The translations under genes and the position numbers were made by a program. From assembly GCA_016297965.1 (NCBI GenBank), contig JAEDDP010000003.1, positions 15,789 to 79,788 on the forward strand: DNA of 64,000 nt, given 5' to 3'. Below the pieces are notes generated by a model. The model saw nothing but the letters and a program-made list of their open reading frames with translations. It ran no database searches and was not told where the DNA came from. Each line of letters begins with the position of its first letter. Position 1 is the first letter of the stretch. Source of the stretch: Alphaproteobacteria bacterium. Its GTDB lineage: Bacteria > Pseudomonadota > Alphaproteobacteria > Rs-D84 > CACZYB01. This document shows positions 1 to 37,715 of this stretch, piece by piece.

Positions 1-2009
1 TCGGTGCCATTTGATGTGGATTTTGACTTATCCTTCTTTTCCCCATTCTTTTTAAACTTTGGTTCACCAACGGTTACCGACTTTGCCAAACTGATAGGTG
101 CCAAAACTATATTTTTAATGTTTTTACCAAGGCTTATACCACCAGATGATATACCATAAGATGATGCAAATTCACCAAGTTTGTTATATACATAATATAT
201 ACAATACACTATAAATAGGAATTTTGAAACAGATAATAAATCAACCGGAATATTATTCGTAATTATTGATGTATCATTTTGTTCAATGGCCCGATTTAAT
301 ATTTGCAAAATGTTTTCCTTTGTATTCACAAAATAAAATGAATTAAGTAATGCAGAATTAAAAAGCGCAAATACGGCAAGATTTATCATGGTAAGTCCAA
401 ATTTTCGTGACATTTCAATAATACTTTTTATACTGGTACTAATCCCAACAATATTAAAGGCGTAACCAAACACCGCGAACGGCCAAATGATGGCGAGTTT
501 TAAAAAGTCAAGCAAACCATCAAGGACATAAAATGAAATCATAAGTCCGATTGAAAAATATAATCCAAAGATAACCACACCAAAAACAAAGCCCAAAAAT
601 TTGTGTTCCGATTTTGATGAAAAATTAAACAGGTCGCGGACAAGGACTTCGCCCATTGTCATTTGCCGTCCGTTTGCTTCAAGTGTGTTTGTTAAAAAGC
701 AAACTATATTTCCCATTGTATCCTTTGAAATAATGGATGAATTTTGTAATCGTTCAAGGCTTTTTGCTTGTTCAACCTTTATAATCGGAGGAACCGCCGT
801 TTCATTTTGTTCTGTACGATGTTCGGCATTTATTTTATCAACAACAGATGCTCCATCACAACTGTACCTTGTCCCAGAGGTAGTCCCAACCTGCATCACA
901 GAATCTGAAATTGCCATAGTTAGGTTAAGTACAGGTTCCATAGTCCAAGAAAACAATATTTTTGGTGGCACCAAAATAAGTGTGCAAACGACCAAAATTT
1001 TTTGTAATTGTTTTGCAATGCTTTTTGGATAGTAAGAAAAATCACTTTCAAATGGAAGCCCCTTAAATCCCTTAAAAAACTCAAATACCATAAAAAGACA
1101 TCCAAACACAAAAAGGAAAGTTACAATAATTCCGGAAAAATGGGAATACATATAATCAAACAAATATGATATTTCATTAAATATCATTACAATGTGAGGG
1201 CAAAGATAACAATGGCTGTTTCGGTTTACCATTTCCTGAATTGTTTTTGGTTTACATACACTATTGTTCCATTTTATGTTTGTTGTTTGATTGGATAGTG
1301 ATGAAAAATAAACCTCACGTGTTTGTTTGCCAAGCGCCCGATTGTCGAGAATTGTTGCAACGGTTTCACCAAAAATATTTTCCAACTTGTTTCCATTTAA
1401 CACAACCGGAGAAAGGACCGGTGGTAATGCAGAGATAAGTTTTCGGTATGTTGGAGCATCAGTTTCATAAAGACTGTTATCAACAGAATATGTTGCATCA
1501 TTTTGAATTATAGAGCAGGAACGGTACCCCTTATCCTTATTCAAAATATCACCAATTTTGTTTCCATCAAATATTGCATTGTTGGCTTCAAAATTTTTGT
1601 ATGTTGCAATTATGTATGGGGCATTTCCCCTTGCCTCCGCCACCAGGGATTTTATAAAATCATCGGTTGAATTTGGAGTGGCAAGGCGGGAATAATCATC
1701 CTCATCAATATATTCATTAACAAGGTCCGGTGTTAGTCCAATTTTTCGTAAATATGAAATGTTTTTTTGAACTTCACTTGGATAAAGCTTTTCATATTCG
1801 GAAAGCGAAATGTTGCCACGTTTTGATGAAATAAGGTATGAAATATCACTGCAATAATATGACGGTGAATATTCGGATAATACAACAGATGCCGATGGAA
1901 AATAAAATTTTGCATTATCATAGGTGCAATTTGACGGCGCGGAATATGCCCCCACAGAAAGGTAAAACATAGGAATAAAAAATAACAATGTATGTATAAA
2001 TTTTCTCAT
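1..2009 (-). CDS. Partial (3'-truncated at window start) large secreted/polytopic membrane protein; tentatively VirB6/TrbL-like T4SS paralog. ATG at 2009..2007; no stop before position 1 (>660 codons).
   Basis: Manual reverse-strand translation from the ATG at 2009 gives an uninterrupted ORF. It starts MRKFIHTLLFFIPMFYLSVGAYSAPS (signal peptide), followed by a ~300 aa hydrophilic domain and several hydrophobic helices. It is not in the ORF track because no stop lies within the window. It is separated by 1 nt from the upstream paralog-like gene 2010..3686. Confidence 0.5.
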   Translation of the reverse strand, partial: MRKFIHTLLFFIPMFYLSVGAYSAPSNCTYDNAKFYFPSASVVLSEYSPSYYCSDISYLISSKRGNISLSEYEKLYPSEVQKNISYLRKIGLTPDLVNEYIDEDDYSRLATPNSTDDFIKSLVAEARGNAPYIIATYKNFEANNAIFDGNKIGDILNKDKGYRSCSIIQNDATYSVDNSLYETDAPTYRKLISALPPVLSPVVLNGNKLENIFGETVATILDNRALGKQTREVYFSSLSNQTTNIKWNNSVCKPKTIQEMVNRNSHCYLCPHIVMIFNEISYLFDYMYSHFSGIIVTFLFVFGCLFMVFEFFKGFKGLPFESDFSYYPKSIAKQLQKILVVCTLILVPPKILFSWTMEPVLNLTMAISDSVMQVGTTSGTRYSCDGASVVDKINAEHRTEQNETAVPPIIKVEQAKSLERLQNSSIISKDTMGNIVCFLTNTLEANGRQMTMGEVLVRDLFNFSSKSEHKFLGFVFGVVIFGLYFSIGLMISFYVLDGLLDFLKLAIIWPFAVFGYAFNIVGISTSIKSIIEMSRKFGLTMINLAVFALFNSALLNSFYFVNTKENILQILNRAIEQNDTSIITNNIPVDLLSVSKFLFIVYCIYYVYNKLGEFASSYGISSGGISLGKNIKNIVLAPISLAKSVTVGEPKFKKNGEKKDKSKSTSNGT

Positions 2010-3686
2010 TTATGTATTTTCATCCCCAGTGTTATTTTTGTTTTTTCCAGAAAGTCTTTTTAAAAGATAGTCCAATTTTGACCCGCGGTCCTGTAATTTA
2101 GTTTCACCACTTTTCCGATAATCCTTAACCTCACGAATAACGGATTTTGTAAGGGATAGTGTTGAAAGTCCCATACTTTTTAATGGTTGAACGAGTGAGG
2201 ATTCGGAAACACTTGCCCCAAACCATCCGGCAAATTTACCGGATTGCATCATTATTGCACCGTCAAGACCAATCGCAATAATCACATATACAAAATACCA
2301 TGTTGTTCCGACAAGTCGGTTAAATTCCTCAATATTGCCGGCCTTTAATAAACCAATTAAGGTTTGTGGTGTTGTTATGTTTGTTCCGGATGCGGAAAAC
2401 ATACCGCCCAAAATCCAATCATTGACTTCGGCACACATAACCATCGCAATACAGGTAAAGATAAGACGAAGGGCAAATGAAAATGTGTTTGAAATGGATA
2501 CTGTCGCATATCGTCGTGTCGTTTCAAAAATATAACAAACGGCAAGCACCGGCATTAAAATAATCGCCACACCAAGGAACAACATATATTCAACAATGAT
2601 AAATGAGAAAAACATATTTATGAAAAACAAACCAATAACCAAACATACACCGGCAAGTCCCATACGTACATCCTCGCTTGCGAAAATATTGGCAATAACG
2701 GCCATCGTTGCGGGAATACTGTTGTTATCCTGTAAAACCTCACCAGCCTTATTTATACGACGTGTCTTTTTTCCACCGGATTTAATATCACTTAATTCAT
2801 CAGCCATCCGATCTTCAACATCCCTTAACCGTTTACGAATCTTTTTTTCCTGCTCCTTTGAGGTGGAATTTGAAAGCATATCATTTAACTTGTCCCGCTT
2901 TTTACCCATTTTTTTAAACCACTTTTTGGAACCAAAATTTTTTGCAAATGAACCACCAATAAAAAATGCACCACGAATAACAATATATTCAATGGCAGTT
3001 GCAATCATTGGTTTAAGCCCATATTCAAACATTGATATTCCCAAATCCATATAATCATAACGAAGGACATTAACCTCCCGCATTAGGCAAACCATATTAT
3101 TTTTTGTATTTTCAGAAAGGACGTGCCCTTCCTTATAAATAAGAGTGGTTGGCATATTTTGACACGACGATGGTATTTTATCCTTTTGAATTATTTTTTT
3201 ACGGATAAATTCACGACCAACGCCACTTCCAAAATCAAGTGTAATTTCAAATGTGTTTGCAAAAATGTTTCGTGGATTATTAACAATAAAAAGTCCAACA
3301 ACAGCAACGGTCAAAAAAATCTTTTTATAAATATCCTTTATGTAATCAGCATTAAATTTTGGTGCATCAGGGTAAAGCATTGTATCAAGTGTTGGTTGAA
3401 ATGCCAAATATGTTTTATATACAACCCATAGGGCAAGACAGACAGATAAAACCTTAAATATTTCAGATTGAAAATATTCAAATGTTTGAAACGATATTAT
3501 TGAGAATACATCATACATACTTTCAAAAACAGAACAGGTCCAACAATCCTTTAATAACGGATACATCTTTGTTGTCAAAACGAATAAGGCAATGGTTACT
3601 AAAATGGTAAATATCCATTTTATCCAAGAGGCGACCTTGCCAATGGATGAAAATAAATCAAATCCGCTTGATTGATTAGATGCCAA
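2010..3686 (-). CDS. Polytopic inner-membrane protein (558 aa), tentatively VirB6/TrbL-like T4SS component.
   Basis: ORF track. Several TM helices at the N-terminus, a central basic coiled-coil segment (KKMGKKRDKLNDML...RKRLRDVEDRMADEL), a second TM cluster, and a hydrophilic basic C-terminus. This architecture and the tandem arrangement with the downstream membrane gene resemble rickettsial rvhB6 paralog arrays. No conserved motif could be verified by eye. Confidence 0.45.
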   Translation of the reverse strand: MASNQSSGFDLFSSIGKVASWIKWIFTILVTIALFVLTTKMYPLLKDCWTCSVFESMYDVFSIISFQTFEYFQSEIFKVLSVCLALWVVYKTYLAFQPTLDTMLYPDAPKFNADYIKDIYKKIFLTVAVVGLFIVNNPRNIFANTFEITLDFGSGVGREFIRKKIIQKDKIPSSCQNMPTTLIYKEGHVLSENTKNNMVCLMREVNVLRYDYMDLGISMFEYGLKPMIATAIEYIVIRGAFFIGGSFAKNFGSKKWFKKMGKKRDKLNDMLSNSTSKEQEKKIRKRLRDVEDRMADELSDIKSGGKKTRRINKAGEVLQDNNSIPATMAVIANIFASEDVRMGLAGVCLVIGLFFINMFFSFIIVEYMLFLGVAIILMPVLAVCYIFETTRRYATVSISNTFSFALRLIFTCIAMVMCAEVNDWILGGMFSASGTNITTPQTLIGLLKAGNIEEFNRLVGTTWYFVYVIIAIGLDGAIMMQSGKFAGWFGASVSESSLVQPLKSMGLSTLSLTKSVIREVKDYRKSGETKLQDRGSKLDYLLKRLSGKNKNNTGDENT

Positions 3687-3690
3687 TTAT

Positions 3691-3954
3691 TTACTTCCTT
3701 TTTTCCGTAAGTTTTTGATGTAATTCAATCAAATATTTTGCAAATTTTGACGACATAAATTTACGAAAATAATAATCAATTTTATCTTGAAGTTCCCGGT
3801 TCTGGCTGTTCGCCTTTATATACAAAATTCCAAGGCAAAAAATAATCACAGACCAGGATATGAAAAGTATTAAATATTTAAGTTTTGCAATAAGGACAAT
3901 TCCAAATAAAATGCCAATCATTGACAATAACAACTTTAAATTTCCAGAAAACAT
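3691..3954 (-). CDS. Small two-TM membrane protein (87 aa), co-operonic with the VirB6-like genes.
   Basis: ORF track. Two hydrophobic helices, then a basic C-terminal tail. Only a 4-nt gap to the downstream gene. Confidence 0.4.
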   Translation of the reverse strand: MFSGNLKLLLSMIGILFGIVLIAKLKYLILFISWSVIIFCLGILYIKANSQNRELQDKIDYYFRKFMSSKFAKYLIELHQKLTEKRK

Positions 3955-3957
3955 TTC

Positions 3958-3986
3958 TTGCCTCTCTTTCCTTTTTAGTATATAAT
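3958..3986 (+). promoter_or_regulatory. Putative sigma70-type promoter TTGCCT-N17-TATAAT for the 4031..7609 operon.
   Basis: ttgcct at 3958-3963, a 17-nt spacer, and tataat at 3981-3986, about 45 nt upstream of the GTG at 4031. Confidence 0.35.
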
Positions 3987-4030
3987 AACCAATAGATTAA
4001 AAATAATCAAATAAAATAAGGTTTTTTATA

Positions 4031-5296
4031 GTGGAAAATAATATAAAATCTGATACTTATGACAAAAAAAATCCCTTTGAGTCAAAAGAGGCACAAAAAC
4101 TTGCTTCTTTGGCAATAATTGATAAGGTTCGTTATGCCATAAAAAATTTAACAAAAGAAAAAGCAGTTGAAGAAATTCAAAAACTTCGTGATACGGATAA
4201 GGCACGATATTTTACGGGTGCTTTTGACCTTGCCGATGATTTTTTGAATGGAAAAATTCCGGAAAATGGTCGCGATGGTTTCAATTCAAAATTACAAAAA
4301 ATTGAAGATGATACTTTGGATATGATTGACAACCTTTCGGATAGTATTATTGAGGAAGGAATAAAAAAACAGACAAAACAAGAAATTGTTGATGAAATTA
4401 TGAATGAAAATCCGGATGCAAATAGGGATGAGGTGGAGGCAACCGTAAACGAGGCAATAGAGGATGAAAACGAGGCCTTTATTGATGAAAAACAAACCTT
4501 GTCCGATGAACCGTTTAAGCTTTCCCGACCAAAGGTTGATAAGATTAAAAAGATTTATACCTATAAAGTTGAAGGAAAGATTAAATCGGGTATACCAGAC
4601 CTTGATAATTTTTTGGCGATAATACAACCCGCAATAAATCAGGTGATTATTCAACCATGGAAGCTTATTTATGGAACCGTGGATGCAAAAAATTATGCAT
4701 TTGAAAAATTTGAAAACTGGCAATCAAAAATAAACAACCTTAAAACCGCCTGGGGGACACTTGAAAAACTTGGGGCAATTCCAAAGGATAAAAAGTTTAA
4801 ATATTTCGGCGATATAAATAAAAAGGAAGATGAGATTGCGGGATATTTCAATGCGTATGCAACCGACATTATGAATGACAAGTTTGTTGATAGTGAGGAA
4901 TTGGCAGAAAAAGGTCCACGAAAGAAATTGTTTGATTATACCCGTGAACCCTTACCCGCAAGAAAGACAATTGATGACATCCTTTTGAACCTTATTAAAA
5001 ATAATTGTCGTGGCGAAGATGGAAAGATTAGCGAAGGCGGGGCAAAACTCCTTAAAGGATTCAGTATTATGGTTGACCTTTTTAATAAGGAAGACAAGGA
5101 CAAAATTCCATCCGATTTTACATGTGATGTTGGCTATATTATGCAGGAAGCAAAGGGACGGACATCATACACAGATCAAAAAATTGAAGATGTGGATGTT
5201 GTTGGTATGATTGATGCAAGGGATAAAAAGGCAAAGGATGATGACTACCTTAAAAACTTGGCTGAGGCATTAGGACAGTTAAATGGAGGTAAGTAA
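4031..5296 (+). CDS. Hypothetical acidic protein (421 aa), first gene of a 5-gene operon. Carries the N-terminal motif DDFLNGKIPEN (aa 69-79), shared with the 6377..6943 product.
   Basis: ORF track (GTG start). Highly charged, with no TM segment or signal peptide. No family recognised. Confidence 0.5.
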   Translation: MENNIKSDTYDKKNPFESKEAQKLASLAIIDKVRYAIKNLTKEKAVEEIQKLRDTDKARYFTGAFDLADDFLNGKIPENGRDGFNSKLQKIEDDTLDMIDNLSDSIIEEGIKKQTKQEIVDEIMNENPDANRDEVEATVNEAIEDENEAFIDEKQTLSDEPFKLSRPKVDKIKKIYTYKVEGKIKSGIPDLDNFLAIIQPAINQVIIQPWKLIYGTVDAKNYAFEKFENWQSKINNLKTAWGTLEKLGAIPKDKKFKYFGDINKKEDEIAGYFNAYATDIMNDKFVDSEELAEKGPRKKLFDYTREPLPARKTIDDILLNLIKNNCRGEDGKISEGGAKLLKGFSIMVDLFNKEDKDKIPSDFTCDVGYIMQEAKGRTSYTDQKIEDVDVVGMIDARDKKAKDDDYLKNLAEALGQLNGGK

Positions 5297-5299
5297 TTT

Positions 5300-6364
5300 A
5301 TGAAAAAAATATTGTATTTGCTTCTTATAACCGGATTTCTGATTGCACCAATTGGATATTGGCTTATCACATGGTGGGGGGTTGATTTCAGTCATTTTCC
5401 ATCGTTTGCAAGGTTCAAATACATTTATTCACAGGACAGATTTTTAAGTATTGCCACATCAATAAATTCAGTGTTGTACTTGTTTGCAATCTATAAAATT
5501 ATTTTTTCAAATCCAGCACCAAAACAAAAAAAAGATGTGGTGAATGAAAAAAATGTTGTCGTAAATAAAAATACAAATGACAACATTACAAAGTGGGACA
5601 ACCTTTATGGTCCAAACAGGGTTGTAAATGCCACATCACCTACCGCAACAGAAAGAAATGATGCTATTCCTACTCCTACACCTTCACAAAATAGTAGGGA
5701 ACAGCAAAAAGTTGTTGAACGGGTTGAGGTAGAGGTTGAACCACCACAGGCAGGGACAAAGGTGGAGAAAAGTAATATAATCAATATGACAGAACCAGTG
5801 TCGGCAATGGAAGTTTACCAAAATCAAATCAATAATATTTTGGAAAATAACGGATATGCGGGGATGGGTGCGTGTGTTATAAATAACATTGATGTTGATT
5901 TTATCGCCGTGGCGGAAAGTGATACTTTGGTTGTCGGAATAATAAATACTGAATACGGTGATATCATTGCAAATGAAACGCCAAGTTCGGATGGTGAAGT
6001 TCCATCATGGTTTACGAATGAACGGAAATATCCATCGCCAGTTTGGGAGATAAAGACCGTTCAAAAGGCTGTTAATAAAATGATAAATGAGGTACTTCCT
6101 CCGGACAATGGAATCGTGGTGAAACCTGTTGTTGTAATACCAAATGCGAATGTTGCCAACCAATTGGATATGGAGGCGAAATGGAATGAGATTGGGGTTT
6201 CCGTTACACGATTTTTAAATCATTCTGAGCTTCCAAACCTTATTGATGTGTTGCCAGATAAAAAGGGAACCGAGGTATTGGAAAGTTATAAAACTTTTGT
6301 AAAAACACTGATTAAATATTTTTCACAAAAGAATAGAAAGTATCCAATGAAAAAGGCCGGATAG
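5300..6364 (+). CDS. Membrane-anchored protein (2 N-terminal TM helices, Pro/Thr-rich linker) with a C-terminal NERD-like / PD-(D/E)xK-like nuclease-related domain.
   Basis: GGAGG RBS; the start lies 4 nt after the upstream stop. The C-terminal segment GMGACVINNIDVDFIAVAESDTLVVGIINTEYGDIIANE...W resembles the NERD core (DhL.v...gvfvIEvKnysG.i...W). The E/K positions look substituted. Confidence 0.45.
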   Translation: MKKILYLLLITGFLIAPIGYWLITWWGVDFSHFPSFARFKYIYSQDRFLSIATSINSVLYLFAIYKIIFSNPAPKQKKDVVNEKNVVVNKNTNDNITKWDNLYGPNRVVNATSPTATERNDAIPTPTPSQNSREQQKVVERVEVEVEPPQAGTKVEKSNIINMTEPVSAMEVYQNQINNILENNGYAGMGACVINNIDVDFIAVAESDTLVVGIINTEYGDIIANETPSSDGEVPSWFTNERKYPSPVWEIKTVQKAVNKMINEVLPPDNGIVVKPVVVIPNANVANQLDMEAKWNEIGVSVTRFLNHSELPNLIDVLPDKKGTEVLESYKTFVKTLIKYFSQKNRKYPMKKAG

Positions 6365-6376
6365 GAGGTAGATTAA

Positions 6377-6943
6377 ATGTTGTTTAGTGAGGAATATTAC
6401 AAGGACTTAATCGCTAAACTTGGGCTTCCGGAAATGCCTATATCAAAGGTGATTTATAAGGGGAAAAATCTTCTTAACCCACAAACATTTCGGGATGATT
6501 TTTTAAAAATTTCAAAAAAGCTTATGCAATTTGTTTCATACAACAATATCGGACAACTTATAGAGGCAGGAATACCAATTGAAACCATTGATGAACTTCA
6601 CAATGGAATTATTCCCGAAAATATTTCTATATATATAAAAAAGCCAATTGAATATGGGGGAAAGTTGGAATTTTCAAATATGTTTTTGATTAGGACACGA
6701 CCATTTAAAAACATACTTGATACCTTTATGGATGAACAAATTTTAACATTTAACCGCGAACATCCCGGATATGACCGGAACAATGGCTTTATTTTACCAA
6801 CCGAACTTTATATTCCCAATCCGGAGGGGTTAATCTTTCTTCCGGCGTTAAAGGGATTTGCCGGTGCCGGTGGAAATACAACCACCGATAAAATGTCCGA
6901 AATTGGCAGTACTATGTTTTTAAAAAATGATGGAAGGTTTTAA
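6377..6943 (+). CDS. Putative toxin-like protein (188 aa). Shares a positionally conserved N-terminal motif (DELHNGIIPEN, aa 72-82) with the 4031 product. Possible HH-dyad (LHH/AHH-like) nuclease relic; unverified.
   Basis: AGGAGG RBS. It sits immediately upstream of a SUKH-type immunity gene, with a 3-nt gap. No signal peptide. Confidence 0.45.
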   Translation: MLFSEEYYKDLIAKLGLPEMPISKVIYKGKNLLNPQTFRDDFLKISKKLMQFVSYNNIGQLIEAGIPIETIDELHNGIIPENISIYIKKPIEYGGKLEFSNMFLIRTRPFKNILDTFMDEQILTFNREHPGYDRNNGFILPTELYIPNPEGLIFLPALKGFAGAGGNTTTDKMSEIGSTMFLKNDGRF

Positions 6944-6945
6944 TT

Positions 6946-7389
6946 ATGTTGTATGAAAAAGTAAAAAAATTAAAATCTTTGGTGAAAAATTCGGTAGTTT
7001 TTGATGGAGCAAAACCGGCAAAATTGGACTTTACCAATGCGGTGCTTACAAATTCAAAAAATGCGACACTTCCGCCAGAATACATTGAATTTTTGAAAAT
7101 AACAAATGGAATGATTATTCCTCCGTATGAATTTTATGGAAGTGAAGTTATTGACCGAAAAGATTATAATTATAAATACCCAAGTATTATGGAAATAAAC
7201 AAAACATTTGTGCAAAATAAAAACCCATTGATTGAAAACAGGGTTGTTATTGGCAATGTATTTTTTGACACAATCATATATGATAAATTTGACAATAATT
7301 ATAAGATTGTAAACAGGATAAATTTTGAAATTATTAAAAGTTTTTCATCGTTTTCAAACTTATTGGATTATATAATTGAAAGTATGTAA
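6946..7389 (+). CDS. SUKH-1 / SMI1-KNR4 family immunity protein (147 aa).
   Basis: Motif ATLPPEYIEFLKITNGMIIPPYEFYG matches the SMI1/KNR4 signature (LP.dY..FL...NGg). Size ~140 aa. A C-terminal VIGNVFFDTIIYD segment resembles the family's conserved C-terminal block. Confidence 0.55.
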   Translation: MLYEKVKKLKSLVKNSVVFDGAKPAKLDFTNAVLTNSKNATLPPEYIEFLKITNGMIIPPYEFYGSEVIDRKDYNYKYPSIMEINKTFVQNKNPLIENRVVIGNVFFDTIIYDKFDNNYKIVNRINFEIIKSFSSFSNLLDYIIESM

Positions 7390-7399
7390 GGAATAAAAA

Positions 7400-7609
7400 A
7401 TGCTTGAAAAACATTCAATTACAATTATGGGACATCATACAAGTATTACCTTAGAGCCGGAATTTTGGCAGGAGTTAAAAAATATTGCCACAAGGGAAAA
7501 TAAATCCGTCGGCAAAATTATTTCCGAAATTGATGCACCGGATTTGAATGAAAACCTTTCAAGTAATATTCGTGTATTCGTTTTAAAAAAGGTTAAGGGA
7601 TTATTGTAA
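7400..7609 (+). CDS. Ribbon-helix-helix (RHH_4-type) small protein conserved in Alphaproteobacteria.
   Basis: HSITIMGHHTSITLEPEFWQELKNIA...NLSSNIRVFVL closely matches the alphaproteobacterial RHH family, which is often misannotated as aryl-sulfate sulfotransferase. Confidence 0.6.
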   Translation: MLEKHSITIMGHHTSITLEPEFWQELKNIATRENKSVGKIISEIDAPDLNENLSSNIRVFVLKKVKGLL

Positions 7610-10600
7610 AATTTCCTTTTTCTTCCTTAACAAATAAACAGGATTTATTTTTGATGTGATGGATGTTGTATCAACCTTTCCCGTCAAGTTATTCACAAAA
7701 CCCTTTAAATCATAACTGAACACTAAGTTATCCGGTGCAAGGTTTGATATATCAAAAATACTTTCTATATTAAGACTTTTTTGAATAAGGTTTCCCGACA
7801 ACATACCACTTATATTCATATTTGGAAGGGAAAGATTGAATGCGGAATCCTTTACATCCGCAGATGAAATTTCACCGTCCACAGAAAGTTTTGGAAATTC
7901 CATACTTCCACTTTTAAGGGAATTTTCAAGTGTATATATAACGTTGTTTGTCGTTATATTGGCAAGCTTTAATATATTCGCAAGTATTGTTGAATAATCA
8001 CTTATACCGGAAATTTTTCCATTTAATATATCAATGGAATAATTACCTGACAAATTTGATAAAAGCTGGTATGCATTCATTCCGTTTGTTTTAAACTTTA
8101 TATCCGCATTCAATGTGCCGGATACAAGGTTCAAAAGTTCGTTATTCATTATATCATTTGGAATTTGATAATTTGAGATTTTAACTGTTCCATCAAACAT
8201 ATTTGAATTTAAAACTTCGGAATTCAAATCAATTTCATAATTGTGTTTTTTAAGTTTAAATTTAAAACTTCCTGGATTGGTGGAATTTTTCAAATCAAAT
8301 ATTACATCCTTGTAATTATTGCCGTTATATTCAGAAATATTTTTTGCATTAAGGTATATGTTGTACGGAATATCACGAATGATTTTAAGAAGGAAATCAA
8401 CATATCCATCGGTGTCCTTTATCCTTTTTATAACATCCTTTATATTGAAATTTTGCGTGTTAAGGGCAACAGAAGTTTCAAAACCACTTCGGTCCTTTTT
8501 TCGTAAAATTTCGCCGGTAAATACATTATTTTTGATACGGAATTCCATATCCTTTATATTATACCCCTCTACCCTCGCCTTTAATGAAAATGGGATATTG
8601 TCGTAAAAATAATTTATCAAATTATCACTTATAAAGCCCCAAGAGAACAAAAATCCCTTTAATTCATTATGCGATAGTTCAATTGTGTACGAAGCGTCGG
8701 TGTCAAGCAATTTACCGTTAACCTTTATTTTTATATCGTTTAATTTCGCATCAACCTGAGATATTGGATTTGACGCACTTCCGTTTAAAAGTATGTCAAT
8801 TCGGTTTACACCATTGGCAATCATTGTTTCAATAAATTGATTTTTTATGAATGGTATTGATATACCCTTTAACGTAGAAGATGAAATGTTATAGGAAAAG
8901 TTTTTAAATTCCCCAGCGGAACTTAAAATATTAAACAACTCCCCTTTCATCGCACTTTGGTATCCCTGATGATTAAAGGTTAGATTTTTAAGGTTAAGGC
9001 TTCCGTCCAAATATGAAGTATTAAGTTTGAAATTGTCATAGTTTGAATTATTCATCCGCAACTTTTTTATCATAACATTCAAACTAAAACTGCTTGACCG
9101 GATAAGGGAAAGTTTTGAAATTATAAATGAAAGATCAATGTTTTCCTTTATCAACTTATCCAAATTAACAGAATCAGATTTGATATTTAGGACATAATCC
9201 GTTTTTCCGTTTTCGGTTTTGGATGTAAAATATCCGGAAATAAGGTTGCCCCCAACCTCGGCCGTCATATTCAAAATATTTATAAAGCTTTTTGACATAG
9301 TTATGTCGGCATTAAGTCGGTTAAACTGTAAATATGGAGTGAAAATATTTTTTATGTCCCGTGAAAGGTTGCTTGCAACACGAACATCAATTGTCAAATC
9401 ATCGTTTAGGACATTTAGGATTTTACCACTTATTTTAATTGGCTTTTTATTTATGGAATAGCCCAAATCAGAAATATTTATTCCATTGAATACGTCCCCG
9501 TAAAATATAGGCGAGGTATTTAGGCGGAAATCCGTAATCATACTTTTTGTTGCAACAATATTTTTTGCGGTAATGTTAAAGTTTGCATATTGGAACAATG
9601 ACAATAATTTTTGTGATTTAAGTAATACATTTACCGGATTATAGGCATCATTTGCCTTTATATCAATAAACTTTGCAACAGGGAAAGTTGAGAAATCAAT
9701 GGAAAAATTAACACCCGAACGGTCAATACCATTTTTGCCATCAGGTTGCATTGCAAATGGAATAACACCTTTAAACTTTCCAACGACTTCGGAACCTTCT
9801 ATACTTCCATTGTTTAACAATATTGAGTTAGGAGAATTTTGAATATTAAATTTCAACTTTACCGAATCATTGAAAAATTGGGTATTTGGAAGTTCAACCG
9901 ATTTTATAAACTTTTTTGTGAATTTCAAAAGGCTGTCCGTTGTTATGCCAACATTTCCGGAAATTGTTTTTTCGCCCTCCTTTACAATTATGGTAAAGTC
10001 ATTATCAAGTTTGCTTTTTCCGGTAATGTAGTTAAAGTTTGTAACCGCATTAAAATTGTCGCTGTCAATATAGGAAAATAAGAATGAAAGGTTATCAACT
10101 TCCCCATCTTCAAAATAAAAGGAACCATTACCCTTTACCTTTGAACCTTCAACGGTTTTAAAACGAACGTTAATGTTTGTGATAAACGAGTCCGCCAATA
10201 CGACACGACCATTTTTTATTGTTACCTCCTTAAAAATCTTTCCATTCAATAAGGTATCAAGGTTTTCGTATTGTGAATTTTTGTATACATTTTCATAAAA
10301 GGTTGCATCCATAACGGCAATTTTGTTAATTACGAAATTGTCACTGAAAAAATTAAGAAATCCGGTATTGATGAATATCTTTGATGCGTTAATAAAAGCA
10401 CCGGGACTTTTTTCATCCATAGAACTTATTTCAACATTTCGTAAAATAACGGATGGGCGAGGAAGAATAGCAAATGAGATATCCCCTTTAATTGATGCAC
10501 GAAAACCAAATGTGCTTTGGATTTTATTTTCAATATAGGATTTTTGATTATTCAAATTTATAAAGTTTGGTAAAACATATAATGCAAAAAAGAATGCAAA

Positions 10601-10642
10601 TACTGACAATATCAACTTATAGTGTTTTTTCAATGAATCCAT
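7601..10642 (-). CDS. AsmA-family large envelope protein (~1013 aa from the ATG at 10642).
   Basis: N-terminal TM anchor, then FGFRASIKGDISFAILPRPSVILRNVEISS, typical of the AsmA N-terminal region. Long beta-rich body. GAGGGG RBS before the ATG at 10642; the track's longer start at 10690 is less likely. Confidence 0.55.
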   Translation of the reverse strand: MDSLKKHYKLILSVFAFFFALYVLPNFINLNNQKSYIENKIQSTFGFRASIKGDISFAILPRPSVILRNVEISSMDEKSPGAFINASKIFINTGFLNFFSDNFVINKIAVMDATFYENVYKNSQYENLDTLLNGKIFKEVTIKNGRVVLADSFITNINVRFKTVEGSKVKGNGSFYFEDGEVDNLSFLFSYIDSDNFNAVTNFNYITGKSKLDNDFTIIVKEGEKTISGNVGITTDSLLKFTKKFIKSVELPNTQFFNDSVKLKFNIQNSPNSILLNNGSIEGSEVVGKFKGVIPFAMQPDGKNGIDRSGVNFSIDFSTFPVAKFIDIKANDAYNPVNVLLKSQKLLSLFQYANFNITAKNIVATKSMITDFRLNTSPIFYGDVFNGINISDLGYSINKKPIKISGKILNVLNDDLTIDVRVASNLSRDIKNIFTPYLQFNRLNADITMSKSFINILNMTAEVGGNLISGYFTSKTENGKTDYVLNIKSDSVNLDKLIKENIDLSFIISKLSLIRSSSFSLNVMIKKLRMNNSNYDNFKLNTSYLDGSLNLKNLTFNHQGYQSAMKGELFNILSSAGEFKNFSYNISSSTLKGISIPFIKNQFIETMIANGVNRIDILLNGSASNPISQVDAKLNDIKIKVNGKLLDTDASYTIELSHNELKGFLFSWGFISDNLINYFYDNIPFSLKARVEGYNIKDMEFRIKNNVFTGEILRKKDRSGFETSVALNTQNFNIKDVIKRIKDTDGYVDFLLKIIRDIPYNIYLNAKNISEYNGNNYKDVIFDLKNSTNPGSFKFKLKKHNYEIDLNSEVLNSNMFDGTVKISNYQIPNDIMNNELLNLVSGTLNADIKFKTNGMNAYQLLSNLSGNYSIDILNGKISGISDYSTILANILKLANITTNNVIYTLENSLKSGSMEFPKLSVDGEISSADVKDSAFNLSLPNMNISGMLSGNLIQKSLNIESIFDISNLAPDNLVFSYDLKGFVNNLTGKVDTTSITSKINPVYLLRKKKEILQ

Positions 10643-10764
10643 TTTTCCCCTCTTAAAATGCCAAAGTAAGGTATTTATTTCCTTTGACAATCCCCTGTTA
10701 TGTTCTATATTATATTTATACTTTTATTAAGACAAGAAAAAAATATATTAAAGAGATTTTTAAA

Positions 10765-12860: not shown

Positions 12861-13424
12861 ATGAGAAAAATATTATATGTTATAATTACACTTGCCGTTG
12901 TTATGCTTGGGGTATTTTTTGTTAAGGAAAATAAAAAAAATGTGTCTTTGCATACAACAAACCGCAAGGTGGATTTAAAACAATTTGAATATGTAAATAA
13001 AGATGATAATACGAATGGTATCGTAAGAATTTACAAAAATGGTAAATGGGGTGTTGCAGATAAGGATGGAAACCTTATCGCAGATGTAAACTATGATACT
13101 GTTGACAATTTTTATGAAGGTCGTGCAATAGTTTCGGAAAATGGAAAGTATGGCTTTATTGACCTTGATTCAAACATAATTGTTAAACCAAAATATATGT
13201 TTGCATATCCTTTTGTGAATGGTTATGCCGTTATCCAGGATGAAAATGAAAAATATGGAGCTATTGATAAACAAGGCAATGTTGTAATTGAACCACTTTA
13301 TTATGATTATATTTCTTCATTTGATATAAATGGTTATGCAAAGGCGATGAATTTTGCCGATGGTAAAAATGTAGCGATTGATATAAATGGCGAAATAATC
13401 AAAGATTTCAATGCAAAAAAATAA
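12861..13424 (+). CDS. Secreted WG-containing-repeat (KWG) protein.
   Basis: Signal/TM N-terminus. Repeats KWGVADKDGNLI / KYGFIDLDSNII / KYGAIDKQGNVVIEP / GYAKAMNF are typical of the WG_beta_rep family. AAGGAGG RBS. Confidence 0.55.
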   Translation: MRKILYVIITLAVVMLGVFFVKENKKNVSLHTTNRKVDLKQFEYVNKDDNTNGIVRIYKNGKWGVADKDGNLIADVNYDTVDNFYEGRAIVSENGKYGFIDLDSNIIVKPKYMFAYPFVNGYAVIQDENEKYGAIDKQGNVVIEPLYYDYISSFDINGYAKAMNFADGKNVAIDINGEIIKDFNAKK

Positions 13425-16117: not shown

Positions 16118-17614
16118 ATGAATAATGTGGGTAAATTAAGAAAAATCCTGGGGTTGGCGTGTCTTAGCGCCGGTATTTTCATACCTGAAATAGTTAAGGC
16201 CGAAGGGTCGCCGATATATTATGACTCGTTTTATGAGGAGTATTATAAGGCATTTCCGGATGCAAAACCCAAAAAGAAAAAACAGACCATAAAAAGGGCT
16301 CAACCTCAACAAACTCTTCCTCAGCCTGTGTATTACAATGGTTATGACCCATATATGCAAATGCAAACAAATGCGATGTATACACAAAATATTTCGCCTG
16401 TTGCATCCGCATATCAAAGTCAAGGTGTTGAACATAACACAAAGAATTGGTATGTGGATATAAGGATGAAAAAGGGTTATGGAAACTTTATGTTTGACAC
16501 CACGGCGGACTCTATTTTGACATGGGACGAAGTGGATACAAAGGAAACAGTATTTAAAGTTTCGCGCGATTTTATGATAAAAAATCGTCAATATGTGTTT
16601 ACGGCAACCTATGGCACCGGAAGTGGTACAACGACAAGGACATCGGATGACGACATTTTCAACTCGCTTCACCTTATAACGCTTGGTGATGGTACGGTTG
16701 ATTTGAAAAACTGGTCGGTTGGATTTGGTATGCGAAATGCATGGAAGCTTGGAAATTGGGATGTAACCCCATATATCGGATACAAGAAAAAAGAACAAAA
16801 TTTTGAAATGGCAAACCACGTGACACCGGCTCCGTTCTATCTTGAAAAATTCTGTAATGATGTTGGTGATATTACTGTGAATGGTGTAACATATTACAAT
16901 GTATGTACCGGTGGTATAAATATTACAAGTCAGGGGCTTGATGCATCAAGTTTGTATTATGCCGATGCGGATGGTAATGAGATTACAAATATGGGACCTG
17001 TTACAAATACAACCATTCCTGGATATGTGACATTAAGTGAGGGCAGTGTGTATGTGAACCTTGCCTATGGTGATGCAATTCCAGATGAAGATTATTGTTT
17101 CCACCAAGAAGGACAAAATCCAGAGGTATTTACTTGTCTTAAATCCGGAACCGCGGGGGCAAACCTTGTAAGTGTGTTTGGTGGTGTTTCATCGCTTGAA
17201 GAACAGGCAGGAACAACACATATGTATTATGTTGATTGGGCCGGACCATATATTGGTATAAACCTTGAACGAAAGATTTCAAGCCGTGAAGACTTATCAA
17301 TTTACGGTGAATATTTCAAACCTCATTATAAGGTTTGGGCGAACTGGCCGAACAGAACCGATTTGGCGCATGATCCATCATTTATTGATGAAGGTGGAAG
17401 TGCGTACGGGTTGTTATTTACCCTTGATTACAGGTACAGTATTCGTTCAAATATCCAACTTGTTATGGGAATGGAATATGAATACATTGAAACAAAGGGT
17501 GCCGACAGTACACTTTTTGAAAGTGATGGATATTCATCAACCGAAAGTGGATTTGTTAAGGTTGCAAGATGGAAAAGCTATGGCTTTAATGTTGGACTTG
17601 CCTTTAAATTATAG
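16118..17614 (+). CDS. Putative outer-membrane protein (signal peptide, Pro/Gln-rich N-terminal region, beta-rich C-terminal domain).
   Basis: Signal peptide LACLSAGIFIPEIVKAEG. Alternating hydrophobic pattern at the C-terminus (GFNVGLAFKL). Confidence 0.45.
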   Translation: MNNVGKLRKILGLACLSAGIFIPEIVKAEGSPIYYDSFYEEYYKAFPDAKPKKKKQTIKRAQPQQTLPQPVYYNGYDPYMQMQTNAMYTQNISPVASAYQSQGVEHNTKNWYVDIRMKKGYGNFMFDTTADSILTWDEVDTKETVFKVSRDFMIKNRQYVFTATYGTGSGTTTRTSDDDIFNSLHLITLGDGTVDLKNWSVGFGMRNAWKLGNWDVTPYIGYKKKEQNFEMANHVTPAPFYLEKFCNDVGDITVNGVTYYNVCTGGINITSQGLDASSLYYADADGNEITNMGPVTNTTIPGYVTLSEGSVYVNLAYGDAIPDEDYCFHQEGQNPEVFTCLKSGTAGANLVSVFGGVSSLEEQAGTTHMYYVDWAGPYIGINLERKISSREDLSIYGEYFKPHYKVWANWPNRTDLAHDPSFIDEGGSAYGLLFTLDYRYSIRSNIQLVMGMEYEYIETKGADSTLFESDGYSSTESGFVKVARWKSYGFNVGLAFKL

Positions 17615-34970: not shown

Positions 34971-36063
34971 TTATTTTGTACTGTTGTATAGCAATGTTGC
35001 CGAAAGGAAACCGTCAATATCCCCGTCAAGGGTGGCTTCTATATTAGAAGTTTCATAGTTGGTTCGTAAATCCTTTATCATTTGATATGGTTGCAAAACA
35101 TAGGAACGAATTTGTGAACCCCAACCATTTTCAGCCTTTGATGCATTGATTTTTGCTTCCTCCTCCGCCCTTTTTTCCAATTCCAAATTGTAAAGGCGAG
35201 ATTTAAGCATATTCATTGCGACATCCTTATTTTTAAACTGGGAACGTTCATTTTGGCATTGAACCACAATTCCGGTTGGAATGTGGGTGATACGAACGGC
35301 ACTGTCGGTTTTGTTGACATGTTGTCCGCCGGCGCCACTTGAACGATAGGTATCAATACGCAAATCCTTTTCATCAATGTGTATTTCAATTTTGTCGTCA
35401 ACAACTGGATAAACCCACACAGAAGCAAAACTTGTATGACGACGGGCATTTGAATCAAATGGTGAAATACGGACAAGACGATGTATGCCACTTTCACCTT
35501 TAAGCCAGCCATAAACATCCACACCAGTTATTTGGAGTGTGGCGGATTTTATACCGGCTTCATCGCCTGCGTGTTCCTCAATCAAATCAACCTTAGCCTC
35601 ATGTTTTTCACCCCAGCGGATATACATACGAAGAAGCATTTGCGCCCAATCGCATGCCTCGGTTCCACCGGCACCACTGTGAATTTCAATATAGGCGGGA
35701 AGACTGTCTGCTTCTCCATTTAACATAAGTGAAAGGCGAATTTGTTCCAATGATGCCTCAAACTCATCTATTTGTTTTTCGGTATCGGAAACAAGTTCGG
35801 TATCATTTTCGGATTTTGCAAGGTCCAACATATCCTTTAAATCATTAAATTCCCTTGATTTATCAGAATATAAATTAATTTTTCCCTCCACCGCCGATTT
35901 TTCGGACAATATTTGTTGCGCAGTGGTTGGATTATCCCAAAGGTTCGGGGCGGATGCACGGGAATTTAACTCATTTAATTTTGAAGTAAGAGCTGGGATG
36001 TCAAAGACACCCCCTGATTTCGGATAAAAGTTCCTCTATTTTAGAAAAAGTATTCGGTCCCAT
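34971..36063 (-). CDS. prfB: Peptide chain release factor 2, with a programmed +1 ribosomal frameshift (frame 0 from ATG 36063 to the UGA at 36003..36001; +1 frame on to the stop at 34971).
   Basis: Upstream frame reads MGPNTFSKIEELLSEIRGCL then TGA. The sequence AGG GGG TGT CTT TGA C is the canonical SD-like / CUU UGA C shift site. The downstream frame is full RF2, with the SPF and GGQ motifs and the RF2-type context. Confidence 0.85.
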
Positions 36064-37535
36064 TATTCAACTACCTTTGCACAACCCCTTACATAACTTT
36101 GAAGAGATTTATTTAATTGTATTTCACGGGATGAAAGCTTTGACAAATTACCATCTTCATCCATTACCAAAACCTGACATACGTTATCTTGTTGTTTAAT
36201 AACGAATGTATCACCATCTGAAAGGTTGCTTATCACAGTATACAATCCGGTATCGGTTGAACCAACACGACCACCAAGTCCGGTAATGATTGCAATATCA
36301 ATATCATCCTGTGTTTCATCGGTTCCAATATCGCCAGAATCAATAATATTCAAAAGTCGCGCACGGGCAGAATTGATGCTTTTTATCCCTTCAATAACAT
36401 AAACATTTGAAATATTATCCACATCCTTCAAATGGGTATTTGTACCATTATCCAAAAGATATTTTTTATCGTGTATGCTTTTCTTTTTTCTTTCCTTGTA
36501 CTGATGTTCATCAACCCAGCCCAAATCATCATAATATTTAAGATGTATACCAACCTCACCCTTATCTTTTTCCGCATTGTTCGGAATTATTGAAGGAATA
36601 ACATTTTTGGATGTACGATGACCAAGATTTGATGCAGCGGATTTAACAAAGCTTTCCTTTGCCGTAGAAAGAAGATTTCCGCGTTTGTCCTCAGTAAACT
36701 CATTAAGTTCAAGCATTTCATAGGTTTCTTCACCACAGGCCTGTCTTGCCTCATATATATAGCCAGCAAGCACTGCTTCAACTGCATTTCTCCAATTTTC
36801 AGATTTATTTGTGAATTGAAGTGTTGAATAGTTTTCAAGAAGTTTTGGAATATTGGCAAGTCCCAAATCCCCCGCCTTTGCAAATTTTGATGCAACATCA
36901 GGCTGTTCACCACAAGTTTGTGTCATTAAATTTGTAAATTCAAAGAAATTTCCATCGTGTGCAATTGCCGCCGCATAACATTTTTTGGCTGCCTTTAACC
37001 TGTTATTTGCAACGACACACTCACTTGACCCCTTAACAGCGGATGTTTCAACGGTATTTTTTGCACCCAACCATTTATCAAGGGCGTATCCCTTATATGC
37101 ATCACATTTTTTCTTGTATGCACTAAATTCATTTGCACCAACAACGGCAGAAAGTTGCATATCCATAATATCATAGTAATCCGCCATTGTTTTATCACTG
37201 CAATCAGAATATGCACCACCGGATTGAACCTTATTTACATTATAACATTCACGGTCAAGTCCAAGCATATATTTTGTTGCACAATCTTCCTTTATATATT
37301 CGGCGGATTGGGTCGTTGAAGATGTAGTTGTGGTGGAAGTACGTGATCTTTTTGATGAATTACCACGGGAACTTGATGCACGAGTAGCAGTTGTTGTTTG
37401 TGCGGATGAAACCCTGTTGGAGGAAGCCTTTCGTTCTGCCTCCTGTGAATAGGCATCACCAGACAACAAAATACCGCCAATCATAAAAGAAAGTGGTGTA
37501 AATCCAACAATTAAGGACCTTTTAGATATTTTCAT
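36063..37535 (-). CDS. Secreted Ser/Thr-rich, Cys-containing hypothetical protein; paralog-like to 14004..14996.
   Basis: Signal peptide from M at 37535 (MKISKRSLIVGFTPLSFMIGGILLSG). A Ser/Thr/Arg-rich stretch, then a Cys-containing domain including a DKTM block shared with the 14004 product. Its stop overlaps the prfB ATG (TAATG). Confidence 0.5.
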   Translation of the reverse strand: MKISKRSLIVGFTPLSFMIGGILLSGDAYSQEAERKASSNRVSSAQTTTATRASSSRGNSSKRSRTSTTTTSSTTQSAEYIKEDCATKYMLGLDRECYNVNKVQSGGAYSDCSDKTMADYYDIMDMQLSAVVGANEFSAYKKKCDAYKGYALDKWLGAKNTVETSAVKGSSECVVANNRLKAAKKCYAAAIAHDGNFFEFTNLMTQTCGEQPDVASKFAKAGDLGLANIPKLLENYSTLQFTNKSENWRNAVEAVLAGYIYEARQACGEETYEMLELNEFTEDKRGNLLSTAKESFVKSAASNLGHRTSKNVIPSIIPNNAEKDKGEVGIHLKYYDDLGWVDEHQYKERKKKSIHDKKYLLDNGTNTHLKDVDNISNVYVIEGIKSINSARARLLNIIDSGDIGTDETQDDIDIAIITGLGGRVGSTDTGLYTVISNLSDGDTFVIKQQDNVCQVLVMDEDGNLSKLSSREIQLNKSLQSYVRGCAKVVE

Positions 37536-37715
37536 TAAACTTCTCCTTCTACCCTCCATTTGTTTTTGATTTTACACTTTTTTTAGCCTGTTTTCAAGAT
37601 GTAATTTATTTTTAACATTATTTTTATTTTTTTGATGACTTTTTGAATGGAAGAGTCTTATAATGATGGGATATTTTTAGTAAAGAAATATTGATAAAAA
37701 TAAAGGCGTATAAAA

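Follow-up and report, generated by a model that had tools for sequence, protein, structure and literature searches.

We analysed a window of 64,000 nucleotides (nt) from the genome of an alphaproteobacterium of the order Rs-D84 (assembly GCA_016297965.1, contig JAEDDP010000003.1, positions 15,789 to 79,788 of the forward strand), in which five open reading frames (ORFs) of the plus strand, here called O1 to O5, form a compact block at positions 4031–7609 next to VirB6-like genes of a type IV secretion system (T4SS). An original prediction, made from the sequence alone, had likened this block to a polymorphic toxin/immunity or effector/immunity module. What our analysis supports well is that the block encodes a disabled YhhZ-type HNH protein (O3), its YrhA/SUKH partner (O4) and a membrane-tethered protein with a PD-(D/E)xK fold (O2), and that this set is conserved and linked to type IV secretion. 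All five tandem ORFs were found where they had been predicted (Table 1), and their spacing is indeed tight, with gaps from O1 to O5 of 3, 12, 2 and 10 nt where 3–13 nt had been given. Strong Shine-Dalgarno sequences precede O2 (GGAGG) and O3 (AGGAGG), as proposed for every ORF, and weaker motifs precede O4 (GGAAGG), O5 (TAAGGA) and O1 (TAAGG).

Table 1. Coordinates of the O1–O5 block and of its immediate surroundings in the window.
Feature	Position	Strand	Description
O1	4031-5296	+	acidic cytoplasmic 421-aa protein, GTG start, isoelectric point 4.9, fold unassigned
O2	5300-6364	+	354 aa, predicted inner-membrane protein, 2 N-terminal transmembrane (TM) helices and modelled PD-(D/E)xK-fold domain
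O3	6377-6943	+	188 aa, stand-alone YhhZ-type HNH homologue, active site apparently lost
O4	6946-7389	+	147 aa, SUKH / SMI1-KNR4, YrhA family
O5	7400-7609	+	69 aa, RHH_4, last gene of the operon
Small two-TM gene	3691-3954	-	87 aa, between VirB6-like gene and O1; no family match
VirB6/TrbL-like polytopic membrane gene	2010-3686	-	558-aa protein; TrbL 26.0 bits (cut-off 25.9)
Second VirB6-array paralogue	1-2006	-	cut by window start, 668 aa visible
AsmA-family gene	7601-10690	-	convergent, overlaps O5 end by 9 nt; uvrB next
Sigma-70-like promoter candidate TTGCCT-N17-TATAAT	3958-3986	+	10/12 positions match; in 76-nt divergent intergenic region

The ancestry of O3 emerged from a profile of 26 homologues that was run against 1.8 billion representative proteins and returned 217 relatives. 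In the distant ones, the matching region lies at the C-terminus of PT-HINT, PAAR-like, PT-TG and RHS proteins and carries a weak Pfam HNH match. The O3 profile aligned with that of 62 canonical toxin C-terminal domains (hhalign 99.5%, E 1.7e-22, 133 columns) and with that of 18 stand-alone toxins (alignment A4; hhalign 99.4%, E 1.7e-21). The A4 profile in turn matched the solved HNH nucleases Cas8f-HNH (3e-7), pyocin AP41, an Rhs toxin and ColE7, and aligned with the C-terminal domain of Escherichia coli YhhZ (hhalign 99.9%), an Hcp-fused HNH protein assigned to group 32 of the His-Me fingers (PMC5714182). O3 itself stands alone: the protein starts at the region homologous to the toxin domain and has no carrier, trafficking or pre-toxin module. 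Its Foldseek comparison with the PDB gave no significant match.

Next, we grouped the active sites of the O3 family from an alignment of all profile matches guided by hidden Markov models (HMMs), which suggested a series of histidine decay from toxins (HH...H) through the VirD4-adjacent clade described below (H-x...H...H) to the clade of the window, where no His is left. Canonical toxins of the family read HHK...GG...N...P[YF]H. The intermediate, VirD4-adjacent clade reads H[LIMVR]K...N...PxH...H and has three invariant His residues (H92, H117 and H121 in alignment A5), which, by motif spacing, we take to be equivalent to the metal ligands H102, H127 and H131 of ColE9, with the general base H103 replaced. 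In all 29 members of the window O3 clade the motif has become [YFLC]xK...N...Px[KRL], with both the HH dyad and the third His gone; O3 of the window has Y86-I87 where toxins have HH and K111 where they have H, and has kept the structural N101. Its mapping to ColE9 H102/H103/H127/H131 is likewise our assumption, based on motif spacing and textbook knowledge of colicin DNases. Judged by these residues, with neither the general-base His nor the two aligned metal-ligand His left in place, O3 is predicted to be catalytically disabled as a nuclease. In the T4SS-delivered GHH nuclease TfdA, toxicity disappears when either His of the dyad is changed to alanine (PMC11253643), and loss of the catalytic His is an accepted mark of inactive His-Me fingers, among them Smad MH1, ENPP and teneurin (PMC5714182; PMC3482391).

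O3 ends in a tail, GGNxxxDKMSEIGSTMF (residues 165–181), that is invariant and predicted to be disordered (predicted local distance difference test, pLDDT, below 50). No Pfam domain was found in O3 at E values up to 1, so no XVIPCD was detected; the C-terminal part of O3 is a tail of about 25 aa, as against a domain of about 120 aa. The VirD4-adjacent O3-like proteins of alignment A5 (e.g., P0056, P0057 and P0060) have a conserved N-terminal MWDWSGSK followed by a long Pro/Gln-rich low-complexity region; window O3 has neither.

The assignment of O4 to the SUKH/SMI1-KNR4 group, for which a profile search had been called for, was borne out by Pfam SMI1_KNR4 (PF09346; 29.9 bits, cut-off 25.4) and by the NCBIfam YrhA family (NF038335; 63.5 bits, cut-off 55, residues 5–146). 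The alignment of the O4 family matched SUKH models only, and it aligned with the YrhA protein of IncHI2 plasmids (hhalign 90%). O4 always lies directly downstream of O3 (2-nt gap in the window), and the two co-occur strictly in every locus. The same succession is seen in E. coli K-12, in which yhhZ is followed by yrhA, and on IncHI2 conjugative plasmids, in which the gene after that of an intact 191-aa 'HNH endonuclease' (WQVHHK...N...PYH) encodes a 'YrhA family protein', beside the transfer genes TraG_N and TrhH. The plasmid pair was seen at L058 (NZ_CP067381.1 196608-197699) and in 445 other plasmid records, and 433 of the 446 are conjugative. A tblastn search of plasmids with window O3 gave no match, and no paper naming YrhA together with HNH was found in the searchable literature. 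Given the homology to YhhZ and the plasmid proteins and the YrhA-family partner, our sequence comparisons support O3–O4 as the matched descendant of a real type of toxin/immunity pair, namely the C-terminal HNH domain of YhhZ (YhhZ-CT) with YrhA.

For O2, the original prediction of a membrane-anchored NERD/PD-(D/E)xK-like protein stood with respect to the TM helices and the modelled fold, and was not supported with respect to NERD or a conserved catalytic motif. Two N-terminal TM helices are followed by about 90 aa of disordered linker, and the C-terminal domain is confidently modelled with a PD-(D/E)xK fold (restriction-endonuclease-like, alpha-beta-beta-beta-alpha-beta core), so that, by its model, O2 is an inner-membrane-anchored protein of this fold. 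No NERD match and no Pfam family were obtained at E values up to 1. The third strand has no acidic-x-Lys, and the canonical (D/E)xK is not conserved; E250-x-K252 is kept only inside the window clade, and neither it nor D208 is conserved in distant homologues. O2 and O3 had no NCBIfam match, PADLOC and PHROGs gave nothing useful for O1 to O5, and the same was true of PDB sequence searches with the O2, O3 and O4 profiles and with O5.

To place the block among its relatives, we compared gene neighbourhoods in metagenome-assembled genomes (MAGs). Identical or near-identical copies of the block occur on metagenome contigs, and the relatives, which come from human gut, rumen and termite-type samples, are MAGs that carry the label Alphaproteobacteria or Rickettsiales bacterium. 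More distantly, a homologue with 28% identity was found in Ca. Enterousia, a member of the order Rs-D84, whose genomes are smaller than about 1 Mb (PMC12306168). The small TM gene and the VirB6 array face O1-O2-O3-O4-O5 in this order in about 20 loci, with O3 identity as low as 47%, and the order of the block persists where the downstream neighbour switches from asmA/uvrB to a methyltransferase/UDG set. The block is therefore syntenic and vertically conserved in these MAG loci, which goes half-way to refuting the module as originally predicted, the block being lineage-specific rather than universal housekeeping. Identities to locus L007 were 67% for O5, 64% for O3, 44% for O2, 43% for O4 and 33% for O1, compared with 44% for VirB6, 44% for AsmA and 84% for UvrB in the flanks; O3 is thus the best-conserved protein of the block after O5 and better conserved than VirB6. 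No extra cassettes or orphan immunity genes were present in any locus, each of which has one O3–O4 pair (about 20 loci of the window type and 28 of the VirD4 type). Such a fixed single pair is the opposite of a polymorphic toxin locus. Because of its high conservation, its single copy per locus and the strict gene order, O3 is not an arms-race gene.

The proposed association with type IV secretion was considerably strengthened by two sets of neighbours, the VirB6 array at the locus itself and virD4 inside the operon of the sister clade. In relatives, about five VirB6-like genes form a tandem array, of which the 558-aa gene of the window is the first member. In the sister clade, which is the intermediate clade of the His series, the operon reads O2-like / virD4 / O3-like / O4-like in all 25 loci that extend upstream of the O3-like gene. 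Four of these loci were looked up individually and had the O3-like gene directly downstream of virD4, the O4-like gene next and the O2-like gene upstream of virD4. A metagenome scan added 24 VirD4-type loci, in which virD4 lies upstream of the O3-like gene in 21 of the 21 extending that far, an O4-like gene is present in all that extend downstream, and one or two O2-like genes are present in all that reach past virD4. The genes of this operon are 0–30 nt apart or overlap, and the operon stands alone amid housekeeping genes. At L050, uvrB comes right after the O4-like gene, and in the window it comes after asmA; this shared neighbour suggests that the VirB6-facing and VirD4-type loci are orthologous. 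Taken together, the data support a tie of O2, O3 and O4 to one T4SS gene set in one clade and to another in the second, and of the ancestral-type pair to plasmid transfer regions. Some VirD4-type loci also have a 324-aa ORF that is weakly VirD4-like (E about 3e-13) between the O2-like genes and the full virD4 (L035 3070-4041, likewise L036 and L052), and a similar fragment matching the VirD4 HMM lies at the start of the L034 contig (1-615). Many loci with this extra ORF have two tandem O2-like paralogues.

The reading we favour, to which we give about an even chance, is that O2–O3–O4 is a domesticated, non-nucleolytic derivative of a toxin/immunity system that now serves the VirD4 coupling protein of a T4SS as a resident complex with an accessory or adaptor role. 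We prefer it because O3 is conserved like a machine part, because O2 is membrane-anchored, as is VirD4, and because virD4 sits among these genes with little space between them. In such a complex, O2, O3 and O4 would come together at the inner membrane, on its cytoplasmic side, as accessory or adaptor subunits of VirD4, and would be functional analogues of DotM/DotN/IcmSW in the Dot/Icm coupling complex. O2 would provide the membrane anchor and O3 the conserved hub, whose invariant tail would dock on a partner (VirD4 or O2), and O4 would stay bound to the former toxin face of O3. A more specific version, which we put forward tentatively and regard as clearly less secure, is that O2, O3 and O4 are unrecognised structural subunits of the coupling complex of a Rickettsiales-like (rvh-type, multi-VirB6) T4SS in gut Alphaproteobacteria with reduced genomes, exapted from a T4SS-linked HNH toxin/YrhA pair and a PD-(D/E)xK nuclease, with the O3 family recording a gradual decay of its active site and the O3 tail as the docking element.

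Several points weigh against the resident complex. In a few distant loci (L024/L027, L025 of Ca. Enterousia and L029/L032), the genes next to O3–O4 are housekeeping ones, for example clpB, and the flank that is available contains no T4SS gene. The adaptor role of O2–O4 is assigned through guilt by association. Moreover, D/E200 and E226 of O2 are retained in all homologues, and, judged by sequence, a non-canonical catalytic mechanism may be conceivable in O3 or O2.

The strongest competing explanation, which we consider unlikely without dismissing it, is that O3 is a dedicated, non-catalytic and perhaps DNA-binding T4SS substrate sent to a partner or host cell, with O4 as its cytoplasmic chaperone or immunity-like holder (cf. 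VirE2/VirE1) and the tail as the signal for VirD4. It would fit with the position of the O3-like gene directly after virD4 in the sister clade and with the O3 tail being disordered in the model and invariant, as T4SS signals are C-terminal and disordered. Effector/immunity pairs beside T4SS genes are known, T4SS-delivered HNH effectors such as TfdA exist (PMC11253643), and inactive His-Me fingers can retain DNA binding, as in Smad MH1 (PMC5714182). The O3 tail, however, is charge-neutral and neither Arg-rich nor Glu/Gln-rich like known signals, and O3 shows higher conservation than the VirB6 components of the machine, which would be unusual for an effector. In addition, the membrane-anchored O2 always accompanies the pair, which suggests a resident membrane complex.

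Less probable still is an active, T4SS-associated (polymorphic) toxin/immunity cassette as first proposed, in which O3 or O2 would be the nuclease toxin and O4 its neutraliser. The ancestral part of that proposal survives in the toxin-domain origin of O3, the immunity family of O4 and their 2-nt gap, in the intact homologous pairs on 433 conjugative plasmids and as E. coli yhhZ-yrhA, and in the nuclease fold of O2. The evidence against an active cassette comprises the absence of the HH dyad and the third His in 29/29 members of the O3 clade, the missing N-terminal trafficking or pre-toxin domain and the lack of a conserved (D/E)xK in O2. The strict synteny and high O3 conservation likewise speak against it, with no variability, orphan immunity array or sign of mobile elements, and PADLOC and Tox families gave no match. 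We hold it equally improbable that the block is a lineage-specific cytoplasmic operon for DNA handling or regulation, combining the DNA-binding relics of two nucleases with an RHH regulator, and that it has nothing to do with secretion and sits beside T4SS genes by accident. In its favour, the block encodes an RHH DNA binder and two proteins with nuclease folds, uvrB is nearby in both the window and L050, and some distant loci are without a T4SS neighbour. This explanation struggles with T4SS genes as the immediate neighbours in each of two clades, those of the VirB6 array in one and virD4 in the other, with the ancestral-type pair also sitting in plasmid transfer regions and, above all, with virD4 between the O2-like and O3-like genes inside the operon in 25/25 loci, which is hard to explain by chance. 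Finally, we rejected a recent horizontal acquisition or mobile island, given the normal guanine-cytosine (GC) content, the absence of tRNA or integrase and the housekeeping flanks, and a type II toxin-antitoxin module with O5 as antitoxin, given that O5 follows O4 (the wrong order) and does not occur in any locus with virD4.

As a rule, toxin/immunity pairs are weapons that evolve fast; this one appears to have been frozen, disarmed and wired into the operon of a coupling protein, throughout an entire radiation of uncultured Alphaproteobacteria of gut and rumen that have small genomes. If O2–O3–O4 is indeed an accessory part of the secretion machine, it would add a VirD4 partner of a class that is new for type IVA systems, and it would be a clear example, from bacteria, of machinery made out of a toxin-immunity pair. 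It would also offer a handle on how uncultured organisms that probably depend on other cells employ type IV secretion. That His residues are lost step by step over the clades makes the domestication hypothesis directly testable.

O1 and O5 are lineage-specific additions to O2–O3–O4: both occur only in the VirB6-facing version and are absent from VirD4-type loci, and O5 is also absent from the ClpB-adjacent loci that retain O3–O4. No other gene of the block is so poorly conserved or so variable in length as O1 (421–785 aa in relatives), which has one conserved core motif, KIYxYKVEGxIxSGIxxLDxFLxIIQP, at about residues 165–215. It had no credible match in Pfam, NCBIfam, PHROG, PADLOC or PDB, and a resemblance to the PP2A scaffold in the PDB sequence search consisted of weak low-complexity matches that we judged spurious. 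The prediction of O5 as an RHH protein was upheld by RHH_4 (PF13467; 79.6 bits, cut-off 25, residues 3–64), and its identity in relatives is 57–75%. O5 probably regulates the operon or binds DNA.

The VirB6/TrbL-like and AsmA flanks are as first described, with the additions of the 87-aa two-TM gene and of the 9-nt overlap of AsmA and O5. The 87-aa gene opens the divergent VirB6 operon and is conserved along with the O1–O5 block. The product of the paralogue at the window start had no Pfam match of its own; by BLASTP, it is 24% identical to the 558-aa VirB6-like protein over 211 aa of the TrbL core (E 3e-6). The promoter proposed upstream of O1 is present in the sequence, and we rejected it as evidence in its own right: in this AT-rich DNA (35% GC), promoter-like sites are not enriched (23 found versus 19.8 +/- 4.9 in shuffles). 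Since such sites are as common in shuffles, position is what makes the candidate plausible. An imperfect 12-nt inverted repeat (3972-4003, 83% complementary) overlaps its -10 box; we set it aside as an operator for the RHH protein, as it is AT-rich and probably due to chance. The GC content of the block is 0.27–0.36, comparable to the rest of the window; that of O4 is markedly low (0.27 versus 0.32–0.36 in neighbouring genes). The remainder of the window is chromosomal housekeeping (PheT, IF-2, NusA, AlaRS, a Mur ligase, PBP, class I LysRS and MurJ), and no tRNA was found within it. Downstream of uvrB, a gene for a secreted or membrane protein containing WG_beta_rep (12861-13424, plus strand) and then a 128–146-aa gene are conserved in relatives. 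Elsewhere in the window lie a 498-aa Pom family protein (Protochlamydia outer membrane protein, PF17251, 62 bits; 16118-17614, plus strand), a 498-aa ORF with no Pfam family at E values up to 1e-5 (36063-37559, minus strand) and the class I lysyl-tRNA synthetase (PF01921; 22135-23799, plus strand), which is consistent with a Rickettsiales-like or alphaproteobacterial affiliation.

In the searchable literature, we found no description of the O2–O3–O4 module. The closest known system is the pair of YhhZ-CT HNH and YrhA, with which O3–O4 shares the toxin-domain family (hhalign 99.4–99.9% via A4), the immunity family and the order of toxin then immunity gene at a gap of a few nt, and whose plasmid copy also lies beside T4SS transfer genes. 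The proteins of those pairs read H-H...H and O3 reads Y-I...K. Unlike YhhZ-type toxins, O3 has no Hcp, RHS or PAAR carrier and possesses the extra invariant C-terminal tail, and unlike the YhhZ/YrhA pairs it lies on the chromosome, is conserved by vertical descent and has O2 as a companion. Polymorphic toxins with SUKH immunity (Zhang, Iyer and Aravind 2011; PMC3482391) likewise have an HNH-fold domain of the C-terminal type followed by a SUKH gene, whereas here polymorphism, trafficking module and active site are missing and the pair is fixed in a conserved operon. The X-Tfe/X-Tfi pairs of Xanthomonas and TfdA with its immunity protein in Stenotrophomonas (PMC8740702, PMC11253643) resemble O3–O4 in tying an HNH-superfamily protein and an immunity-type neighbour to VirB/VirD4, and in that a C-terminal region may mediate recognition by VirD4. 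Those effectors are active, large, variable and numerous and carry an XVIPCD; O3, in contrast, is apparently dead, small and single-copy, with no XVIPCD detected. The likeness to the Dot/Icm complex DotL-DotM-DotN-IcmS-IcmW-LvgA (PMC7251119) is a functional analogy only, of small cytoplasmic and membrane-anchored accessories whose genes accompany that of the VirD4-like ATPase on which they assemble, with no established relationship in sequence or fold, and the T4SS here is type IVA-like (VirB6, VirD4). Lastly, the C-terminal GHH domain of teneurin, Smad MH1 and the nuclease-like domain of ENPP (PMC3482391, PMC5714182) are inactive His-Me fingers reused for binding; these cases are eukaryotic, whereas O3 is bacterial and its immunity partner has been retained.

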